A DNA stretch of 7,232 nt. Origin: a virus. Taxonomy: Duplodnaviria; Heunggongvirae; Uroviricota; Caudoviricetes. Positions 1,053-7,232 of this stretch are shown here, piece by piece. Below the pieces are notes generated by a model. The model was not told the DNA's origin and did not search any database. It was given only the letters and a program-made list of their open reading frames with translations. Location: the IMG/VR virus record IMGVR_UViG_2541047820_000004. The stretch is one strand, 5' to 3'. Position numbers and translations under genes: made by a program. Positions within the stretch are counted from its first letter, which is position 1. The number at the start of each line of letters is the position of its first letter.

Positions 1053-4000
1053 ATGGGTAAAGGCAGCAGTAAGGGGCATACCCCGCGCGAAGCGAAGGAT
1101 AACCTGAAATCCACGCAGTTACTGAGTGTGATCGATGCCATCAGCGAAGGGCCGATTGAAGGTCCGGTGGATGGATTAAAAAGCGTGCTGCTGAACAGTA
1201 CACCGGTGCTGGACAGTGAGGGGAATACCAACATCTCCGGTGTCACGGTGGTGTTCCGGGCAGGTGAGCAGGAGCAGACACCGCCGGAGGGATTTGAATC
1301 CTCCGGTTCCGAGACGGTGCTGGGTACGGAAGTGAAATACGACACGCCGATCACCCGGACCATCACGTCTGCAAACATCGACCGTCTGCGCTTTACCTTC
1401 GGTGTGCAGGCACTGGTGGAAACCACCTCAAAGGGTGACCGGAATCCGTCGGAAGTCCGCCTGCTGGTTCAGATACAACGTAACGGTGGCTGGGTGACAG
1501 AAAAAGACATCACCATTAAGGGCAAAACCACGTCGCAGTATCTGGCCTCGGTGGTGGTGGATAACCTGCCGCCGCGACCGTTCAATATCCGGATGCGCAG
1601 GATGACACCGGACAGCACCACAGACCAGCTGCAGAACAAAACGCTCTGGTCGTCATACACCGAAATCATCGATGTGAAACAGTGCTACCCGAACACGGCA
1701 CTGGTCGGCGTGCAGGTGGATTCGGAGCAGTTCGGCAGCCAGCAGGTGAGCCGTAATTATCATCTTCGCGGGCGCATTCTGCAGGTGCCGTCGAACTATA
1801 ACCCGCAGACGCGGCAATACAGCGGTATCTGGGACGGGACGTTTAAACCGGCATACAGCAACAACATGGCCTGGTGTCTGTGGGATATGCTGACCCATCC
1901 GCGCTACGGCATGGGGAAGCGTCTCGGTGCGGCGGATGTGGACAAATGGGCGCTGTATGTCATCGGCCAGAATTGCGACCAGTCAGTGCCGGACGGCTTT
2001 GGCGGCACGGAGCCGCGCATCACCTGTAATGCGTACCTGACCACACAGCGCAAGGCATGGGATGTGCTCAGTGATTTTTGCTCGGCGATGCGCTGTATGC
2101 CGGTATGGAACGGGCAGACGCTGACATTCGTGCAGGACCGACCGTCGGATAAGGTGTGGACCTATAACCGCAGTAATGTGGTGATGCCGGATGATGGCGC
2201 GCCGTTCCGCTACAGTTTCAGCGCCCTGAAGGACCGCCATAATGCCGTTGAGGTGAACTGGATTGACCCGGATAACGGCTGGGAAACGGCAACAGAGCTT
2301 GTGGAGGACACGCAGGCCATTGCCCGTTACGGTCGTAACGTCACGAAGATGGATGCCTTTGGCTGTACCAGCCGGGGGCAGGCACACCGCGCCGGGCTGT
2401 GGCTGATTAAAACGGAGCTGCTGGAAACGCAGACCGTGGACTTCAGCGTGGGCGCAGAAGGGCTTCGCCATGTACCGGGCGATGTCATTGAAATCTGCGA
2501 TGATGACTATGCGGGTATCAGCATCGGCGGGCGCGTGCTGGCGGTGAACAGCCAGGCGCGGACACTGACGCTCGACCGTGAAATCATGCTGTCATCCTCC
2601 GGCACCACGCTGATAAGCCTGGTTGACGGAAATGGCAATCCGGTCAGCGTGGAGGTCCAGTCCGTCACCGACGGCGTGAAGGTGAAAGTGAGCCGTGTTC
2701 CTGACGGCGTTGCCGGATACAGCGTGTGGGGGCTGAAGCTGCCGACGCTGCGCCAGCGCCTGTTCCGCTGTGTGAGTATCCGTGAGAACGATGACGGTAC
2801 GTATGCCATCACTGCCGTGCAGCATGTGCCGGAAAAAGAGGCCATCGTGGATAACGGGGCGTACTTTGACGGCGACCAGAGCGGAACGGTGAACGGTGTC
2901 ACGCCGCCCGCGGTGCAGCACCTGACTGCAGAAGTCACTGCAGACAGCGGGGAATATCAGGTGCTGGCGCGCTGGGATACGCCGAAGGTGGTGAAGGGTG
3001 TGAGCTTTATGCTTCGCCTGACTGTGGCAGCGGATGACGGCAGTGAGCGGCTGGTCAGCACGGCCAGGACGACGGAAACCACATACCGCTTCAGGCAACT
3101 GGCGCTGGGGAACTACAGGCTGACAGTCCGGGCGGTAAATGCGTGGGGGCAGCAGGGCGATCCGGCGTCGGTATCGTTCCGGATTGCCGCACCGGCAGCG
3201 CCGTCGCGGATTGAGCTGACGCCGGGCTATTTTCAGATAACCGCCACGCCGCATCTTGCGGTTTATGATCCGACGGTACAGTTTGAGTTCTGGTTCTCGG
3301 AAAAGCGGATTGCGGATATCAGGCAGGTTGAAACCACAGCCCGCTATCTTGGCACGGCGCTGTACTGGATAGCTGCCAGTATCAATATCAAGCCGGGCCA
3401 TGATTATTATTTTTACATCCGCAGTGTGAACACCGTTGGCAAATCGGCATTTGTGGAGGCTGTTGGCCAGCCGAGTGATGATGCATCCGGCTATCTGGAT
3501 TTTTTCAAAGGAGAGATAGGGAAAACCCATCTGGCTCAGGAGTTGTGGACGCAGATTGATAACGGTCAGCTTGCGCCTGACTTGGCGGAAATCAAAACGT
3601 CCATCACGGATGTCAGTAATGAAATCACGCAGACCGTCAATAAGAAACTGGAAGACCAGAGTGCAGCGATCCAGCAGATACAGAAGGTTCAGGTTGATAC
3701 AAATAATAACCTGAACAGCATGTGGGCTGTGAAGCTGCAGCAGATGCAGGACGGACGCCTTTATATCGCGGGTATTGGTGCCGGTATTGAGAATACCCCT
3801 GACGGTATGCAGAGTCAGGTGCTGCTGGCGGCGGACAGGATTGCGATGATTAATCCTGCGAATGGCAATACAAAGCCGATGTTTGTTGGTCAGGGCGATC
3901 AGATATTTATGAATGAAGTGTTCCTGAAATATCTGACGGCTCCCACCATTACCAGCGGCGGTAATCCTCCGGCATTTTCCCTGACACCGGACGGGCGGCT

Positions 4001-4535
4001 GACGGCGAAAAATGCGGATATCAGCGGTAACGTGAACGCGAACTCCGGGACGCTCAACAATGTCACGATTAATCAGAACTGCCGGATTCTGGGAAAACTG
4101 TCAGCCAACCAGATTGAAGGCGATATTGTTAAAACGGTGGGAAAAGCCTTTCCGAGAAATAGCAGTTATGCCAGCGGTACAATAACGGTCACGGTGTACG
4201 ATGACCAGGCTTTTGACCGTCAGATAGTAATCCCCCCCGTTCTGTTTCGCGGTGGTAAGCATGAAAACTTCAACAGCAACAACCAACAGTCATACTGGTA
4301 TTCAACCTGTAAGCTGCAGGTGCTGAAGAACGGACAGGAAATCTTTCAGCAACCCGCGACGGATGTCAGCAGGGTATTTTCATCAGTCATTGATATGCCT
4401 GCCGGACACGGCCATGTCACCCTGACTTTCAATGTTTCTTCATATGGTGCAAATAACTGGACGCCAACGACCAGTATCAGCGACCTTCTTGTTGTCGTGA
4501 TGAAGAAATCAACAGCCGGTATCAGTATCAGTTGA
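1053..4535 (+). CDS. J: Host specificity protein J (central tail fibre / tip attachment protein), 1160 aa, with a divergent C-terminal receptor-binding region
   Basis: ATG at 1053 preceded by GGAG at 1041-1044; TGA at 4533-4535. The N-terminus ([54 protein letters not shown]…) and about the first 820 aa match lambda gpJ by recall. From about nt 3515 (aa ~821) the sequence diverges, with conserved islands (MWAVK…, [34 protein letters not shown]) and a different extreme C-terminus. Position after K and I is the expected synteny. Confidence 0.95.
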
Positions 4536-4554
4536 ATTTTAAAACCCAAATTCG

Positions 4555-4582
4555 GGCACCAGAAATGGTGCCTTTTTTATTT
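4555..4582 (+). terminator. Rho-independent terminator candidate downstream of J
   Basis: Read directly: stem ggcacc (4555-4560), loop agaaat, stem ggtgcc (4567-4572), immediately followed by ttttttattt (4573-4582). It starts 20 nt after the J stop. Confidence 0.6.
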
Positions 4583-4593
4583 GTGGAGTGAAT

Positions 4594-6651
4594 ATGGCAG
4601 TACAGATTTCAGGTGTGCTGAAAGACGGTGCAGGAAAACCGATACAGAACTGCACCATTCAGCTCAAAGCAAAACGTAACAGCACCACGGTTGTGGTAAA
4701 CACGGTGGCCTCAGAAAATCCGGATGAAGCCGGGCGTTACAGTATGGATGTTGAGTATGGCCAGTACAGCGTTATCCTGCTGGTTGAAGGTTTTCCGCCT
4801 TCACATGCCGGGACCATCACCGTGTATGAAGATTCTAAGCCGGGGACGCTGAATGATTTTCTCGGTGCCATGACGGAAGATGATGTCATGCCGGAGGCAT
4901 TGCGTCGTTTTGAGGTAATGGTGGAGGATGTGGCACGCAACGCTGAAGCCGCCTCTCAGAGCGCAGCGGCAGCAAAGAAATCAGAAACAGCAGCGGCATC
5001 GTCCAGGAACGCGGCGAAAACATCAGAGACGAATGCAGGTAACAGCGCGAAAGCGGCAGCTTCTTCAAAAACAGCCGCACAAAACGCAGCAACAGCGGCA
5101 GAACGTTCAGAGACAAATGCCCGTGCGTCAGAAGAAGCCTCCGCAGACAGTGAAGAGGCTTCCCGCCGTAATGCAGAGTCAGCCGCTGAAAATGCCGGAG
5201 TCGCCACCACAAAAGCGCGGGAGGCTGCAGCAGACGCAACAAAGGCCGGGCAGAAAAAGGATGAGGCTCTGTCGGCAGCGACACGAGCTGAAAAGGCGGC
5301 AGACCGCGCAGAAGCCGCAGCGGAAGTGACTGCAGAGCCCTATGCGAATATAGTGCCGCCGCTGCCTGATGTGTGGATACCGTTTAACGATTCACTGGAT
5401 ATGATTACGGGGTTTTCGCCATCATATAAAAAGATTGTTATTGGTGACGATGAAATAACAGTGCCAGGCGACAAGATTGTTAAGTTTAAACGAGCTTCAA
5501 CAGCAACGTATATCAATAAGTCAGGCTCGTTTGTTGTGGCAGATGTTGATGAAGCCAGATTTGAAAAGTCTGGTTTACTGATAGAAGGGCAACGTACTAA
5601 TAATTTCATTAACAGTAATGCACCAGAAGCATGGAACTTTAATAATAAACGTCTTGATGTAAACAGTAATCTCGATCCATTTGGATTCAGCTATGGTGTT
5701 CTGACGTATAAAGATTCACCTGATACCGGGCCTGTGACGCTCATTTCAACAGGAACAGGTCGGGTTATCTCTGTGGAAAATGGTGACTCTGTTACAATTT
5801 CTGCCCGATTCAAGGGAAACGGAATCAGGGCGAGAATGCGCATATCGAAGCTGAATGATGATGGCGCAGGGAATACTTTTATAGCAGATGCGCTTCTGGA
5901 TTTGAGCAATCTGACATTAAAAAGTGATGTGCTTTCGTCATCTTTCGTAGTGGAAAACAGCGGATGGATATTCTTTCAGTCAACCTATAAATCTGATTCA
6001 TCACAAAATATATATGCCCGAATAGAAATGTATCAACAGGAAGGCAATGAAATTAAGGTCGGTGACAGTATATCAATGGCAACGCCTCAGGTTGAGAAAG
6101 GAACTGCTGCATCATCATTCATCATAACAGGGGGAACACCGGCAACGCGAGCCAGTGATATTGTGACAATCCCATTAAATAAAAACTGGGTGCGAAGGCC
6201 ACTGACAGTACTGACAGAGTGCAGTGTCTCATGGGACGTTATGCCAAATACCACGGGCGCAGCAAGGATATTAAATATTTCCACTACGGGAGACTCAACA
6301 GATATAGCTGACCAGAGTTATATGTATCTTGGTTTTATCTCAAAGGGCTCAAAAGCAATCATCACGAATGGAAAGGGAACTATGGCAGAGATAAAAAGTG
6401 ACATTGCTGTTTCAGGGCGAAAAAACATTATTGGCGGAAGGTTTAAAGAAGACGGGAGTCTGTCTGTAGTGGTAAATGGAAATATCGGTGGTGCATCGGT
6501 TTCGCCTTATAATGATACAAGATATCTTAATGGTTTCATGAATATAGGGGGGCAATCCTCCACCGGAGACAGGCATTTATTTGGACATGTCAGAAATCTG
6601 CGAATCTGGCACAGGGAATTGAATGACAGGCAATTAAAAGAGGCCGTATGA
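4594..6651 (+). CDS. stf: Side tail fibre protein (Stf-like): lambda-Stf-type N-terminal domain, Ala/Ser-rich fibrous shaft, and a distinct AT-rich C-terminal distal domain
   Basis: ATG at 4594 preceded by GGAG at 4585-4588; the listed ORF begins at an in-frame GTG at 4588, two codons upstream. Stop is TGA at 6649-6651. The N-terminus (MAVQISGVLKDGAGKPIQNCTIQLKAKRNSTTVVVNTVASENPDEAGRYSMDVEYGQYSVIL…HAGTITVYEDS.PGTLNDFL) matches my recollection of the lambda Stf N-terminal domain. It is followed by SETNA-type Ala/Ser-rich repeats as in lambda Stf, and from about nt 5340 by a different, lower-GC C-terminal region ending …GHVRNLRIWHRELNDRQLKEAV. Confidence 0.85.
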   Translation: MAVQISGVLKDGAGKPIQNCTIQLKAKRNSTTVVVNTVASENPDEAGRYSMDVEYGQYSVILLVEGFPPSHAGTITVYEDSKPGTLNDFLGAMTEDDVMPEALRRFEVMVEDVARNAEAASQSAAAAKKSETAAASSRNAAKTSETNAGNSAKAAASSKTAAQNAATAAERSETNARASEEASADSEEASRRNAESAAENAGVATTKAREAAADATKAGQKKDEALSAATRAEKAADRAEAAAEVTAEPYANIVPPLPDVWIPFNDSLDMITGFSPSYKKIVIGDDEITVPGDKIVKFKRASTATYINKSGSFVVADVDEARFEKSGLLIEGQRTNNFINSNAPEAWNFNNKRLDVNSNLDPFGFSYGVLTYKDSPDTGPVTLISTGTGRVISVENGDSVTISARFKGNGIRARMRISKLNDDGAGNTFIADALLDLSNLTLKSDVLSSSFVVENSGWIFFQSTYKSDSSQNIYARIEMYQQEGNEIKVGDSISMATPQVEKGTAASSFIITGGTPATRASDIVTIPLNKNWVRRPLTVLTECSVSWDVMPNTTGAARILNISTTGDSTDIADQSYMYLGFISKGSKAIITNGKGTMAEIKSDIAVSGRKNIIGGRFKEDGSLSVVVNGNIGGASVSPYNDTRYLNGFMNIGGQSSTGDRHLFGHVRNLRIWHRELNDRQLKEAV
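4981..5130 (+). repeat. In-frame periodic coding repeats (14-residue periodicity) in the Ala/Ser-rich shaft of the stf-like gene
   Basis: The motif tcagaRac… recurs at 4981 (tcagaaacagcagcggca), 5023 (tcagagacgaatgcaggt) and 5107 (tcagagacaaatgcccgt), at spacings of 42 and 84 nt. These encode SETAAAS / SETNAGN / SETNARA within an alanine-rich low-complexity segment spanning about 4930-5340. Confidence 0.6.
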
Positions 6652-6926
6652 AAGATTTAACTTTGAAGTTTCATGACAAACTGCAGTTTAAGGCCTTCCT
6701 GTCATCTCTTGGCTGGGCGGAAGATGAAGACCTCCAGAATAAACTGTTAGTTGATGAAATTGGTTTCACCTACACAGAAACAGGGGTAACTGAAGAGGGA
6801 GAACCTGTCTGTATCCGGAATGACGGTTATTTTGTCAACATTCGTATTCTTGATGACTTGTTTGATGTTTCTGTATTCTCTGATTATGTCGTGGAGCTGG
6901 AAACACCGCTTCGGGAATGGAGCTGA
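6648..6926 (+). CDS. Hypothetical small acidic protein (92 aa), translationally coupled to stf; possible fibre-associated chaperone or accessory protein, function unknown
   Basis: ATG at 6648-6650 overlaps the stf stop TGA at 6649-6651 (ATGA overlap). AAGAGG sits at 6638-6643, 4 nt upstream of the ATG. The ORF runs to TGA at 6924-6926. The product is rich in Asp/Glu with no obvious hydrophobic segment. I recognise no family; coding status rests on coupling, the Shine-Dalgarno and ORF length. Confidence 0.55.
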   Translation: MKDLTLKFHDKLQFKAFLSSLGWAEDEDLQNKLLVDEIGFTYTETGVTEEGEPVCIRNDGYFVNIRILDDLFDVSVFSDYVVELETPLREWS

Positions 6927-6938
6927 AAGGAGGAAATA

Positions 6939-7232
6939 ATGGATATAAGCCCCTTACTTCATGCACTTTGTGCTGTGGCTGCGCAGATACTGGTTGGTCT
7001 TTTTACCGGAAACTGGGCTTACGGAGCGATAGCCGGTTGTACGTTCTTCATTGCGCGTGAACATACCCAGGCAGAATATCGCTGGATTGAAATGTTCGGG
7101 CATGGCAAGCGAATGAATATGCCGTGGTGGGACGGTTTTGATCCGCGTGCTTGGGATGTGGCAAGCCTGATGGATTTTGCTGTGCCGGTGGTGGCGTGTC
7201 TGCTGGTCTGGCTGTTGGTTAATCGTGGGTGA
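6939..7232 (+). CDS. Hypothetical small membrane protein (97 aa, about 3 predicted hydrophobic helices)
   Basis: Strong Shine-Dalgarno AAGGAGG at 6927-6933, 5 nt upstream of ATG 6939; stop TGA at 7230-7232 at the window edge. Hydrophobic stretches LLHALCAVAAQILVGLF, AYGAIAGCTFFIA and FAVPVVACLLVWLLV suggest an inner-membrane protein. No family recognised. Confidence 0.6.
   Translation: MDISPLLHALCAVAAQILVGLFTGNWAYGAIAGCTFFIAREHTQAEYRWIEMFGHGKRMNMPWWDGFDPRAWDVASLMDFAVPVVACLLVWLLVNRG

Follow-up and report, generated by a model that had tools for sequence, protein, structure and literature searches.

Lateral and side tail fibres determine the O-antigen or capsule types that a phage can get through, and host-range engineering is aimed mainly at them. 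Small accessory proteins, such as T4 gp57A and gp38 and the Tfa of phage Mu, are required for, or attached to, the tips of these fibres. In phage lambda, the side tail fibre gene is immediately followed by the gene for Tfa (PF02413, 194 aa), and the two are tightly coupled; the fibre tip concerned is of the lambda/T4 gp37 type. In the branched fibres of DT57C (LtfA–LtfB) and phiEco32 (gp14–gp15), the proximal fibre carries a separately encoded distal fibre via a short N-terminal region of the latter (PMC4728585).

The window analysed here (7232 nucleotides from a virus of the Caudoviricetes, IMG/VR record IMGVR_UViG_2541047820_000004) carries a small open reading frame, ORF92 (6648..6926, plus strand), directly behind the side tail fibre gene stf. 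In position and coupling it resembles the lambda tfa gene, but its product is half the size (92 aa) and the fibre it accompanies has a LamG/galectin-like tip. A reading of the sequence alone had described the product as much smaller than Tfa and not recognisable as one, and the searches agree: PF02413 has no match to ORF92 at E ≤ 1 nor to 30 of its relatives at E ≤ 0.01, hhalign against lambda Tfa returns a probability of 0.06% and BLASTP yields no alignment.

The stf and ORF92 genes

The stf gene occupies 4588..6651 on the plus strand (687 aa from the GTG at 4588; the ATG at 4594 is the likely true start). Its product consists, in order, of an N-terminal anchor of the lambda Stf type (residues 3–133 match PF08400, E = 2e-69), an Ala-rich coiled coil, a domain resembling GTA head spike fibres (residues 331–522 match NF048003, ‘head spike fiber’, E = 7e-18) and a C-terminal LamG/ConA-like domain, in which residues 546–682 match Laminin_G_3 at 22.5 bits, under the cut-off. 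The protein also matches phrog_1419 and is 62% identical to the Stf of phage 21. The ‘head spike fiber’ domain is held in common with the RcGTA head spike fibre Rcc01080, where it is a lectin-like capsule-binding module (PMC7296036, PMC10218006); it belongs to Stf, the partner of ORF92, and not to ORF92. The small, adjacent jelly-roll protein at the base of the RcGTA head spike, Rcc01079, was considered as a homologue of ORF92 and rejected as unrelated, its fold and position being different. Nor does the locus encode an intramolecular, autocleaved chaperone of the S74 type; a Pfam search finds no Peptidase_S74 match in Stf or ORF92, and ORF92 is an ORF distinct from stf, with an ATG and a Shine-Dalgarno sequence of its own.

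The last ~30 codons of stf (6562..6651, plus strand; located by megablast and motif survey), which encode the end of the LamG-type domain (...GDRHLFGHVRNLRIWHRELNDRQLKEAV), are conserved. Nucleotide homology to phage 21-like phages resumes at 6562 (query base 163 in megablast), 3′ of the variable receptor-binding part, and identity is 73% over the last 40 residues of Stf as against just 45% over the 430-residue C-terminal part. Copies of ORF92 that are 100% identical can stand beside LamG domains sharing no more than 45% identity; any binding to the fibre would therefore have to be through the conserved C-terminal segment and not the variable body.

ORF92 itself is intact and begins MKDLTLKFHDKLQFKAFLSS. 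Its ATG (6648–6650) shares bases with the stf stop codon TGA (6649–6651; GTATGA), which confirms the ATGA overlap noted earlier, and the predicted 10.7-kDa protein is indeed acidic (pI 4.17; 20 D + E vs 8 K + R). A Shine-Dalgarno-like AAGAGG, read from the sequence at 6638..6643 (plus strand), lies within the 3′ end of stf, 4 nt 5′ of the ATG, and a ribosome binding site is annotated at the equivalent site in phage 21. Inspection of the sequence at the stf/ORF92 junction found no promoter-like or terminator-like site in between. ORF92 is probably cotranscribed with stf and its translation coupled to that of stf by the ATGA overlap. Downstream, a 12-nt spacer contains the Shine-Dalgarno sequence AAGGAGG of the next gene (6927..6933, plus strand; read from the sequence, with a ribosome binding site annotated in phage 21). 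That gene, ORF97 (6939..7232, plus strand), encodes a small membrane protein (phrog_1443). ORF97 has a GC content of 53% as against 42% for ORF92 and so probably lies outside the fibre module; the distal cassette of stf has 41–43%.

The ORF92 family and its predicted fold

Profile and structure-prediction searches gave no clear match to a characterized, unrelated family. Sequence and profile searches of Pfam, NCBIfam and PDB with ORF92 returned nothing significant, and to that extent the earlier statement that it matches no family stands. It is, however, a member of PHROG 1361 (related to PHROG 18574), a catalogued family without assigned function whose members have the same length, motifs and gene position: residues 1–91 align with positions 1–91 of the 92-position phrog_1361 profile (E = 3.2e-42), and all 30 of the diverse relatives aligned also match it. 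Named members are CPT_21_23 of phage 21, bas32_0023 of IrisVonRoten, gp24 of JenP2 and bas05_0030 of PeterMerian; some BASEL records call such proteins ‘tail fiber protein’, without evidence. The earlier suggestion of a novel protein is overstated, since it is already present as a hypothetical protein in phage 21, in mEp460-like phages, in BASEL phages and in roughly one in five complete E. coli genomes. The mEp460-like phages carry an identical protein (100%), CPT_21_23 shares 97% identity with it, and a count over 5426 complete E. coli genomes finds the allele in 1131. Its relatives, which number hundreds of homologues, are spread over T5-like, T1-like, Dhillonvirus, Nonagvirus/Seuratvirus, lambdoid, Mu-like and environmental phages. 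No experimental data for any PHROG 1361 member were found in the searchable literature, and publications on phage 21 stf, BASEL, the tail fibre atlas, DT57C, Laminin_G_3 fibres, 9g and ECOR13 contain no statement on a protein of this type.

Alignments define the family (~85–105 aa) by the motifs M[KR]D..L.F ... D.IG ... G[YW][FHY]VN[IVL]R ... P.R.W, all of which are found in ORF92 (MKDLTLKF, DEIG, GYFVNIR and PLREW). Residues conserved family-wide are M1, D3, L6, F8, D36, G39, G60, N64, R66, P87, R89 and W91. Among 13 distinct alleles dN/dS is ~0.28 and, judged by this ratio, ORF92 is under purifying selection; the value is 0.28 both in the clade of two-gene modules and in that of three-gene modules (see below). 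The full-length phrog_1361 match, the hundreds of homologues and the dN/dS value establish that ORF92 is more than a chance ORF.

The AF2 model of ORF92 is confident (pLDDT 88.7) and predicts a small α/β fold; the C-terminal tail P.R.W is conserved but modelled with lower confidence (pLDDT 63). Foldseek with this model against PDB found no solved-structure match (best E only 0.028), and the fold search against BFVD returned uncharacterized homologues only. Profile matches to giant PKD- and TPR-repeat proteins were discarded as spurious, the PKD motif Y.V.V.V.DDDGG resembling GYFVNIRILDD.

Gene order behind LamG-tipped fibres

Synteny was surveyed at 106 loci, which are not independent, many being near-identical prophages. 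At 102 of the 106 the start of the small gene overlaps the stop of a long fibre ORF or lies within 9 nt of it (4-nt overlap in 79, 1-nt overlap in 15, gap of 0–9 nt in 8). The upstream fibre protein ends in G.[IV]RN[LF]RIW...L.D.Q in 98 of the 106, with a variant form in four environmental loci, and the proteins encoded upstream in BRET, L085 and L099 have Laminin_G_3 matches above the Pfam cut-off. The fibre and small-gene pair occurs behind tails of widely differing kinds, in lambdoid, T5-like, Drexlerviridae, Dhillonvirus, Nonagvirus/Seuratvirus and environmental phages; in a Mu-like myovirus prophage it is located between gp43 and gp44. The small gene travels with the distal cassette of the fibre between siphovirus and myovirus tails. 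That ORF92 is associated with the fibre is strongly supported by this synteny, which is kept across unrelated phage groups.

Of the 102 informative loci, 44 have a distal fibre gene immediately 3′ of the small gene; this arrangement, the most informative feature, was not visible to the sequence-only reading. The distal fibres of these 44 loci start M.T.T.IP.DI..LK, and only the first ~20 residues are conserved. Such three-gene modules are found in T5-like and T1-like phages, in Nonagvirus and Dhillonvirus and in many prophages. The window, phage 21 and distant relatives have no distal fibre gene after the small gene; in the window its place is held by ORF97, and the phage 21 genome contains neither a Tfa gene nor any other fibre gene. 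Because phage 21 has no Tfa, ORF92 represents the positional replacement of Tfa in that phage.

The three-gene relatives follow the same proximal/distal logic as DT57C, with homologous distal fibre bodies. DT57C differs in that no small gene separates ltfA from ltfB and the family is not represented in it, its LtfB has a different N-terminus with docking proposed on the middle part of LtfA, and the window itself is without a distal fibre. Proteins of the fibre-to-fibre joint class (e.g. T4 gp35/gp36) are encoded between proximal and distal fibre genes, a placement that the small gene has in the 44 loci but not in the window, phage 21 or the distant relatives. In the model of the BASEL paper (PMC11990801), Gp24 of Iris is mounted on the galectin-tipped proximal fibre Gp22. 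Residues 1–26 of Iris Gp24 are matched in full only by records of the Iris/T5-like three-gene type, and all four of those individually examined (FFH1, APCEc03, phiG7 and SIA3lw) carry the small gene. On K-12 with restored O16, Iris depends on its fibres. The subtype of the docking peptide switches together with that of the small protein while the body of the distal fibre is unchanged. Covariation of this kind could also be simple genetic linkage of neighbouring DNA.

Proposed role of ORF92

We favour, with a probability of roughly 0.55, the reading of ORF92 as an accessory protein dedicated to LamG/galectin-tipped side and lateral fibres, in which it would serve as assembly factor or cap and possibly as a joint piece; what is established is the gene itself, its conservation and synteny, purifying selection and the lack of homology to known chaperones. 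ORF92 would bind the conserved C-terminal end of the fibre LamG domain and be needed for folding, stabilizing or capping of the tip. It probably remains there as a small structural piece; its presence in the virion and its stoichiometry are likewise predicted. In three-gene modules, the small protein and the fibre C-terminus may together form a socket for the ~20-residue N-terminal peptide of the distal fibre. The window would be the two-gene version, as in phage 21, with ORF92 in the position of lambda Tfa; because neither has a distal fibre gene, ORF92 would here be an assembly factor or cap only.

A broader proposal, which we put forward tentatively and hold to be possible rather than probable, is that the whole family is a structural adaptor, a universal socket on the C-terminus of LamG/galectin-tipped proximal fibres for the M.T.T.IP.DI..LK plug of interchangeable distal fibres. 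Such a system would be common to T5-like, T1-like, Queuovirinae, Dhillonvirus and lambdoid phages, and the window would hold the socket without the plug.

The position right after stf, together with the lack of Tfa in phage 21, would also suit a transient folding chaperone and nothing more, acting in the cytoplasm, functionally analogous to lambda Tfa or T4 gp57A, absent from the virion and not involved in docking of a distal fibre. The small size and acidity of ORF92 fit this, as does conservation that is equal where no distal fibre is present (dN/dS 0.28; Mu-like and environmental loci). In virions of vB_Eco_mar004NP2, the proximal fibre was detected by proteomics and the small protein was not, as a chaperone predicts, but the distal fibre was missed too and, with only eight proteins detected, the data are too shallow to count. 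However, LamG/galectin-type domains generally fold without dedicated chaperones, and the RcGTA head fibre, with which the stf product has a domain in common, was made alone in E. coli as a tagged fusion from a single-gene construct. A purely chaperoning role also leaves unexplained why the small protein strictly co-occurs with the docking peptide of the distal fibre and covaries with it in subtype; we consider such a role rather unlikely. ORF92 might instead inhibit or mask the lectin domain, occupying its sugar site in the producing cell or until deployment and so preventing sticking to host glycans, an idea to which we attach little probability.

The sequence-only reading had left the choice between a fibre chaperone or tip-associated factor and an unrelated moron. 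Its first branch is supported as far as fibre association goes. The second, in which a moron or anti-defence gene hitch-hikes behind the fibre gene, draws on the absence of domain matches and of an assigned function, and on the morons often carried by fibre-distal regions of lambdoid phages (sitABCD is just downstream in phage 21). Against it, ORF92 has no promoter of its own, shares the low GC content of the fibre cassette and travels with it, its pairing with LamG fibres is kept at 30% identity across sipho-, myo- and podovirus-like contexts, with the two genes always 0–9 nt apart, and in virulent phages the small gene sits between two structural genes; a moron is thus very improbable. Least probable of all, and largely refuted, is that programmed −1 frameshifting, as in lambda G-T, adds ORF92 to the C-terminus of Stf: ORF92 does lie in the −1 frame relative to stf, as do most homologues (4- or 1-nt overlap), but its frame is open for just seven codons 5′ of the ATG, the last 200 nt of stf contain no X XXY YYZ heptamer, the frame relation differs in homologues with gaps of 0, 1 or 9 nt, and ORF92 has its own Shine-Dalgarno sequence and ATG.

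The class of fibres tipped by LamG/galectin-like domains comes with an obligatory, uncharacterized partner of ~90 residues. Fibres of this class occur in several virulent coliphage groups and in the phage 21-type prophages that roughly one in five complete E. coli genomes contain. If this partner is needed for assembly, or if the joint proposal is true, fibre swaps that leave it out will fail, and the conserved block of fibre C-terminus, small protein and distal N-terminal peptide would offer natural splice points for modular fibre design.

The fibre module and its small gene

The window comes from a lambdoid E. coli prophage, of which it is the tail-tip end, and opens with the C-terminal part of K, followed by I, J (1053-4535, all gpJ Pfam domains present), the 687-aa side tail fibre gene stf (4588-6651), the 92-codon ORF92 (6648-6926) and ORF97 (6939-7232), a 97-codon membrane-protein ORF whose stop falls on the window's final base. 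From 4588 on, the window shares 99.4% identity with a prophage in E. coli DETEC-P881. The ~670 bp from 6562 to the window's end show 95.5% nucleotide identity with phage 21; sitABCD, encoding an iron/manganese transporter, comes next on the opposite strand in both relatives. A GC-rich terminator-like hairpin followed by a T-run lies between J and stf (4554-4573); phage 21 carries the same element with a terminator annotation, which places a terminator inside the late operon, upstream of stf, ORF92 and ORF97. The mechanical ORF start of stf is the GTG at 4588 (MNMAVQISG…); the PF08400 match and phage 21 Stf begin at the ATG at 4594 (MAVQISG…), the likely true start. The stf frame is intact through 687 codons, whereas RefSeq splits its 99.4% identical DETEC-P881 counterpart (NZ_CP116100.1, locus L095, 6007-8064) into an N-terminal pseudogene fragment and a separate 'phage head spike fiber domain' CDS, which may reflect an annotation artefact or a frameshift in the DETEC-P881 genome.

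Judged from its sequence, ORF92 is a real gene. As the sequence-only reading had it, the ORF is small and acidic and its ATG overlaps the stf stop; its pI is 4.17, the ATG at 6648 shares GTATGA with the stf TGA, and AAGAGG lies 4 nt 5' of the ATG. A search from stf to ORF92 and ORF97 saw no promoter-like or terminator-like sites in between. The same reading matched the protein to no family. This holds for Pfam and NCBIfam at permissive thresholds and for solved structures, among which no sequence relatives were found, but ORF92 matches phrog_1361 end to end (E = 3e-42) and so belongs to PHROG 1361, to which no function has been assigned. Searches bring up 47 close homologues and several hundred more distant ones; the median dN/dS over 13 distinct alleles is 0.28. 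The protein is common, not unique: of 5426 complete E. coli genomes, 1131 carry the phage-21-type allele at ≥90% nucleotide identity, annotated as hypothetical every time. The AF2 model (pLDDT 88.7) has a beta-alpha-alpha-beta4 topology with a short helix; the C-terminal tail is conserved in sequence, yet modelled with lower confidence. Profile matches to giant PKD-repeat proteins were rejected as motif coincidences.

A family that accompanies LamG-tipped fibres

An exhaustive HMMER search defines a broad family, 85-110 residues in length, whose members share the motifs M[KR]D..L.F, D.IG, G[YW].VN.R and a C-terminal P.R.W. Viral contigs, genomes, phage records and metagenomes together yielded 106 loci; many are near-identical prophages, so that locus counts overstate independence and the phage groups are the independent evidence. 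In 102 of the 106, the family gene follows a long fibre ORF, overlapping its stop codon or starting ≤9 nt from it. The upstream fibre protein ends in G.[IV]RN[LF]RIW…L.D.Q in 98 loci and in the variant I.K[IL]AYYP.R..N.QLQ.LTS in four environmental ones. The former motif is the terminus of a LamG/ConA-like domain: Laminin_G_3 scores above the Pfam threshold in three upstream fibre proteins and 22.5 bits in the window's Stf, and the homologous domain of IrisVonRoten Gp22 is described by the BASEL authors as galectin-like and protruding from the fibre C-terminus (PMC11990801). In a few prophage loci (L017, L004 and L068) the preceding fibre gene is truncated or displaced (gap of 36-167 nt, or no long ORF) and the small ORF intact; these look like decaying fibre modules.

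The pair is found on very different tails, in lambdoid phages, T5-like phages, Drexlerviridae, Dhillonvirus, Nonagvirus and Seuratvirus, freshwater phages with an SU10-type adaptor and a Mu-like myovirus prophage of Atlantibacter, where the DNA-circulation protein and baseplate hub genes flank it. Stf residues 255-366 (window 5350-5685) share 42% identity with residues 97-191 of the Mu-like prophage's LamG protein (L085, 4427-6004) and the C-terminal motifs match too; it seems that the whole distal cassette, small gene included, passes between the tails of siphoviruses and myoviruses. Stf residues 331-522 (5578-6153) match the RcGTA head-spike fibre domain, NCBIfam NF048003, with E = 7e-18; this links a coliphage side fibre to a gene transfer agent's head fibre, which binds capsule. 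The coliphage module also occurs in records named 'Campylobacter phage C13/C11/A134', in two that bear the name 'Listeria phage' and in a MAG contig assigned to Collinsella (phage records MG065692, MG065652 and MG065663 among others; locus L004); all are probably mislabelled or contaminated.

The junction with a distal fibre

At 44 loci a third gene follows the small gene by 9-12 nt; its product is a distal fibre 98 to 589 aa long (e.g. IrisVonRoten Gp24, JenP2 gp25, BRET_25). These distal fibres have just their first ~20 residues in common (M.T.T.IP.DI..LK…) and diverge completely beyond, so conservation peaks in a single block that runs from the final ~40 residues of the proximal fibre through the small protein to about residue 20 of the distal one, with variable receptor-binding parts on either side. 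The subtype of the docking peptide covaries with that of the small protein (MTTYTNIP… with MKDINLQF…, MVTKTVIP… with MRDIILKF…), and both switch with no change to the distal fibre body from residue ~27 onward. By tblastn, residues 1-26 of the Gp24 N-terminus are matched in full only in Iris/T5-like records of the three-gene type, and all four phages of this type checked individually carry the small gene. DT57C, whose LtfB is attached to LtfA through a phiEco32-type N-terminus (PMC4728585), has neither a small gene nor any member of the ORF92 family. This pattern is as expected if the small protein belongs to the physical joint; the covariation could alternatively stem from genetic linkage of adjacent DNA.

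The window lacks a gene with the docking peptide, as do the Mu-like prophage, the environmental loci and, on a scan of its whole genome, phage 21. The small protein of the phage-21 type has a dN/dS of 0.28, equal to that of the three-gene prophage clade, and the family-wide conserved residues, C-terminal tail included, are identical across all contexts, which argues that its universal partner is the LamG-tipped fibre, not the distal one. ORF97 takes the third-gene position in the phage-21 type, always 12 nt after ORF92 and with a strong SD; it has two TM segments, belongs to phrog_1443 (unknown function) and is a possible moron or exclusion factor.

A candidate tip protein

We propose that ORF92 would be co-transcribed with Stf and probably translationally coupled to it, bind the conserved C-terminal end of the LamG domain, be needed for assembly or stability of the fibre tip and likely stay there as a cap; in three-gene relatives, small protein and fibre end would form a socket for the N-terminal peptide of the distal fibre. 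We give this mechanism as a whole a probability of about 0.55. ORF92 can be 100% identical beside LamG domains of only 45% identity, except over their last ~30-40 residues (73%), so any contact with the fibre is likely at this conserved C-terminal segment. The main rival, a purely transient Tfa-like chaperone, is appreciably less probable. ORF92 holds exactly the position of Tfa in lambda, and phage 21 has no Tfa gene. ORF92 lies outside the Tfa family, since it lacks the sequence similarity that defines the members: direct comparison with lambda Tfa gave an hhalign probability of 0.06% and no BLASTP alignment, in line with the earlier view that it is no recognisable Tfa. The only proteomics found, for vB_Eco_mar004NP2 and AKFV33, is too shallow to be decisive: it detected the proximal fibre and missed both the small protein and the distal fibre.

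That ORF92 masks the lectin is improbable. A moron is slightly less probable again; the GC content of ORF92 (42%) is close to that of the distal half of stf (41-43%), that of ORF97 being 53%, and by composition too ORF92 is part of the fibre cassette. A frameshift extension of Stf is excluded in practice, because the ORF92 frame is open for just 7 codons 5' of its ATG and a slippery heptamer is absent.

The literature search found no paper addressing ORF92 or its family; some members carry the label 'tail fiber protein' in BASEL records, with no comment given, and the text of BASEL-2 covers Gp22 and Gp24 of IrisVonRoten, not Gp23 (PMC11990801). We infer that ORF92 works like a fibre accessory protein, one that is specific to fibres with a LamG tip and comes from a family so far uncharacterised. 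In frequency the gene is nothing unusual, but the conserved architecture of the joint is a testable lead, of use in fibre engineering.
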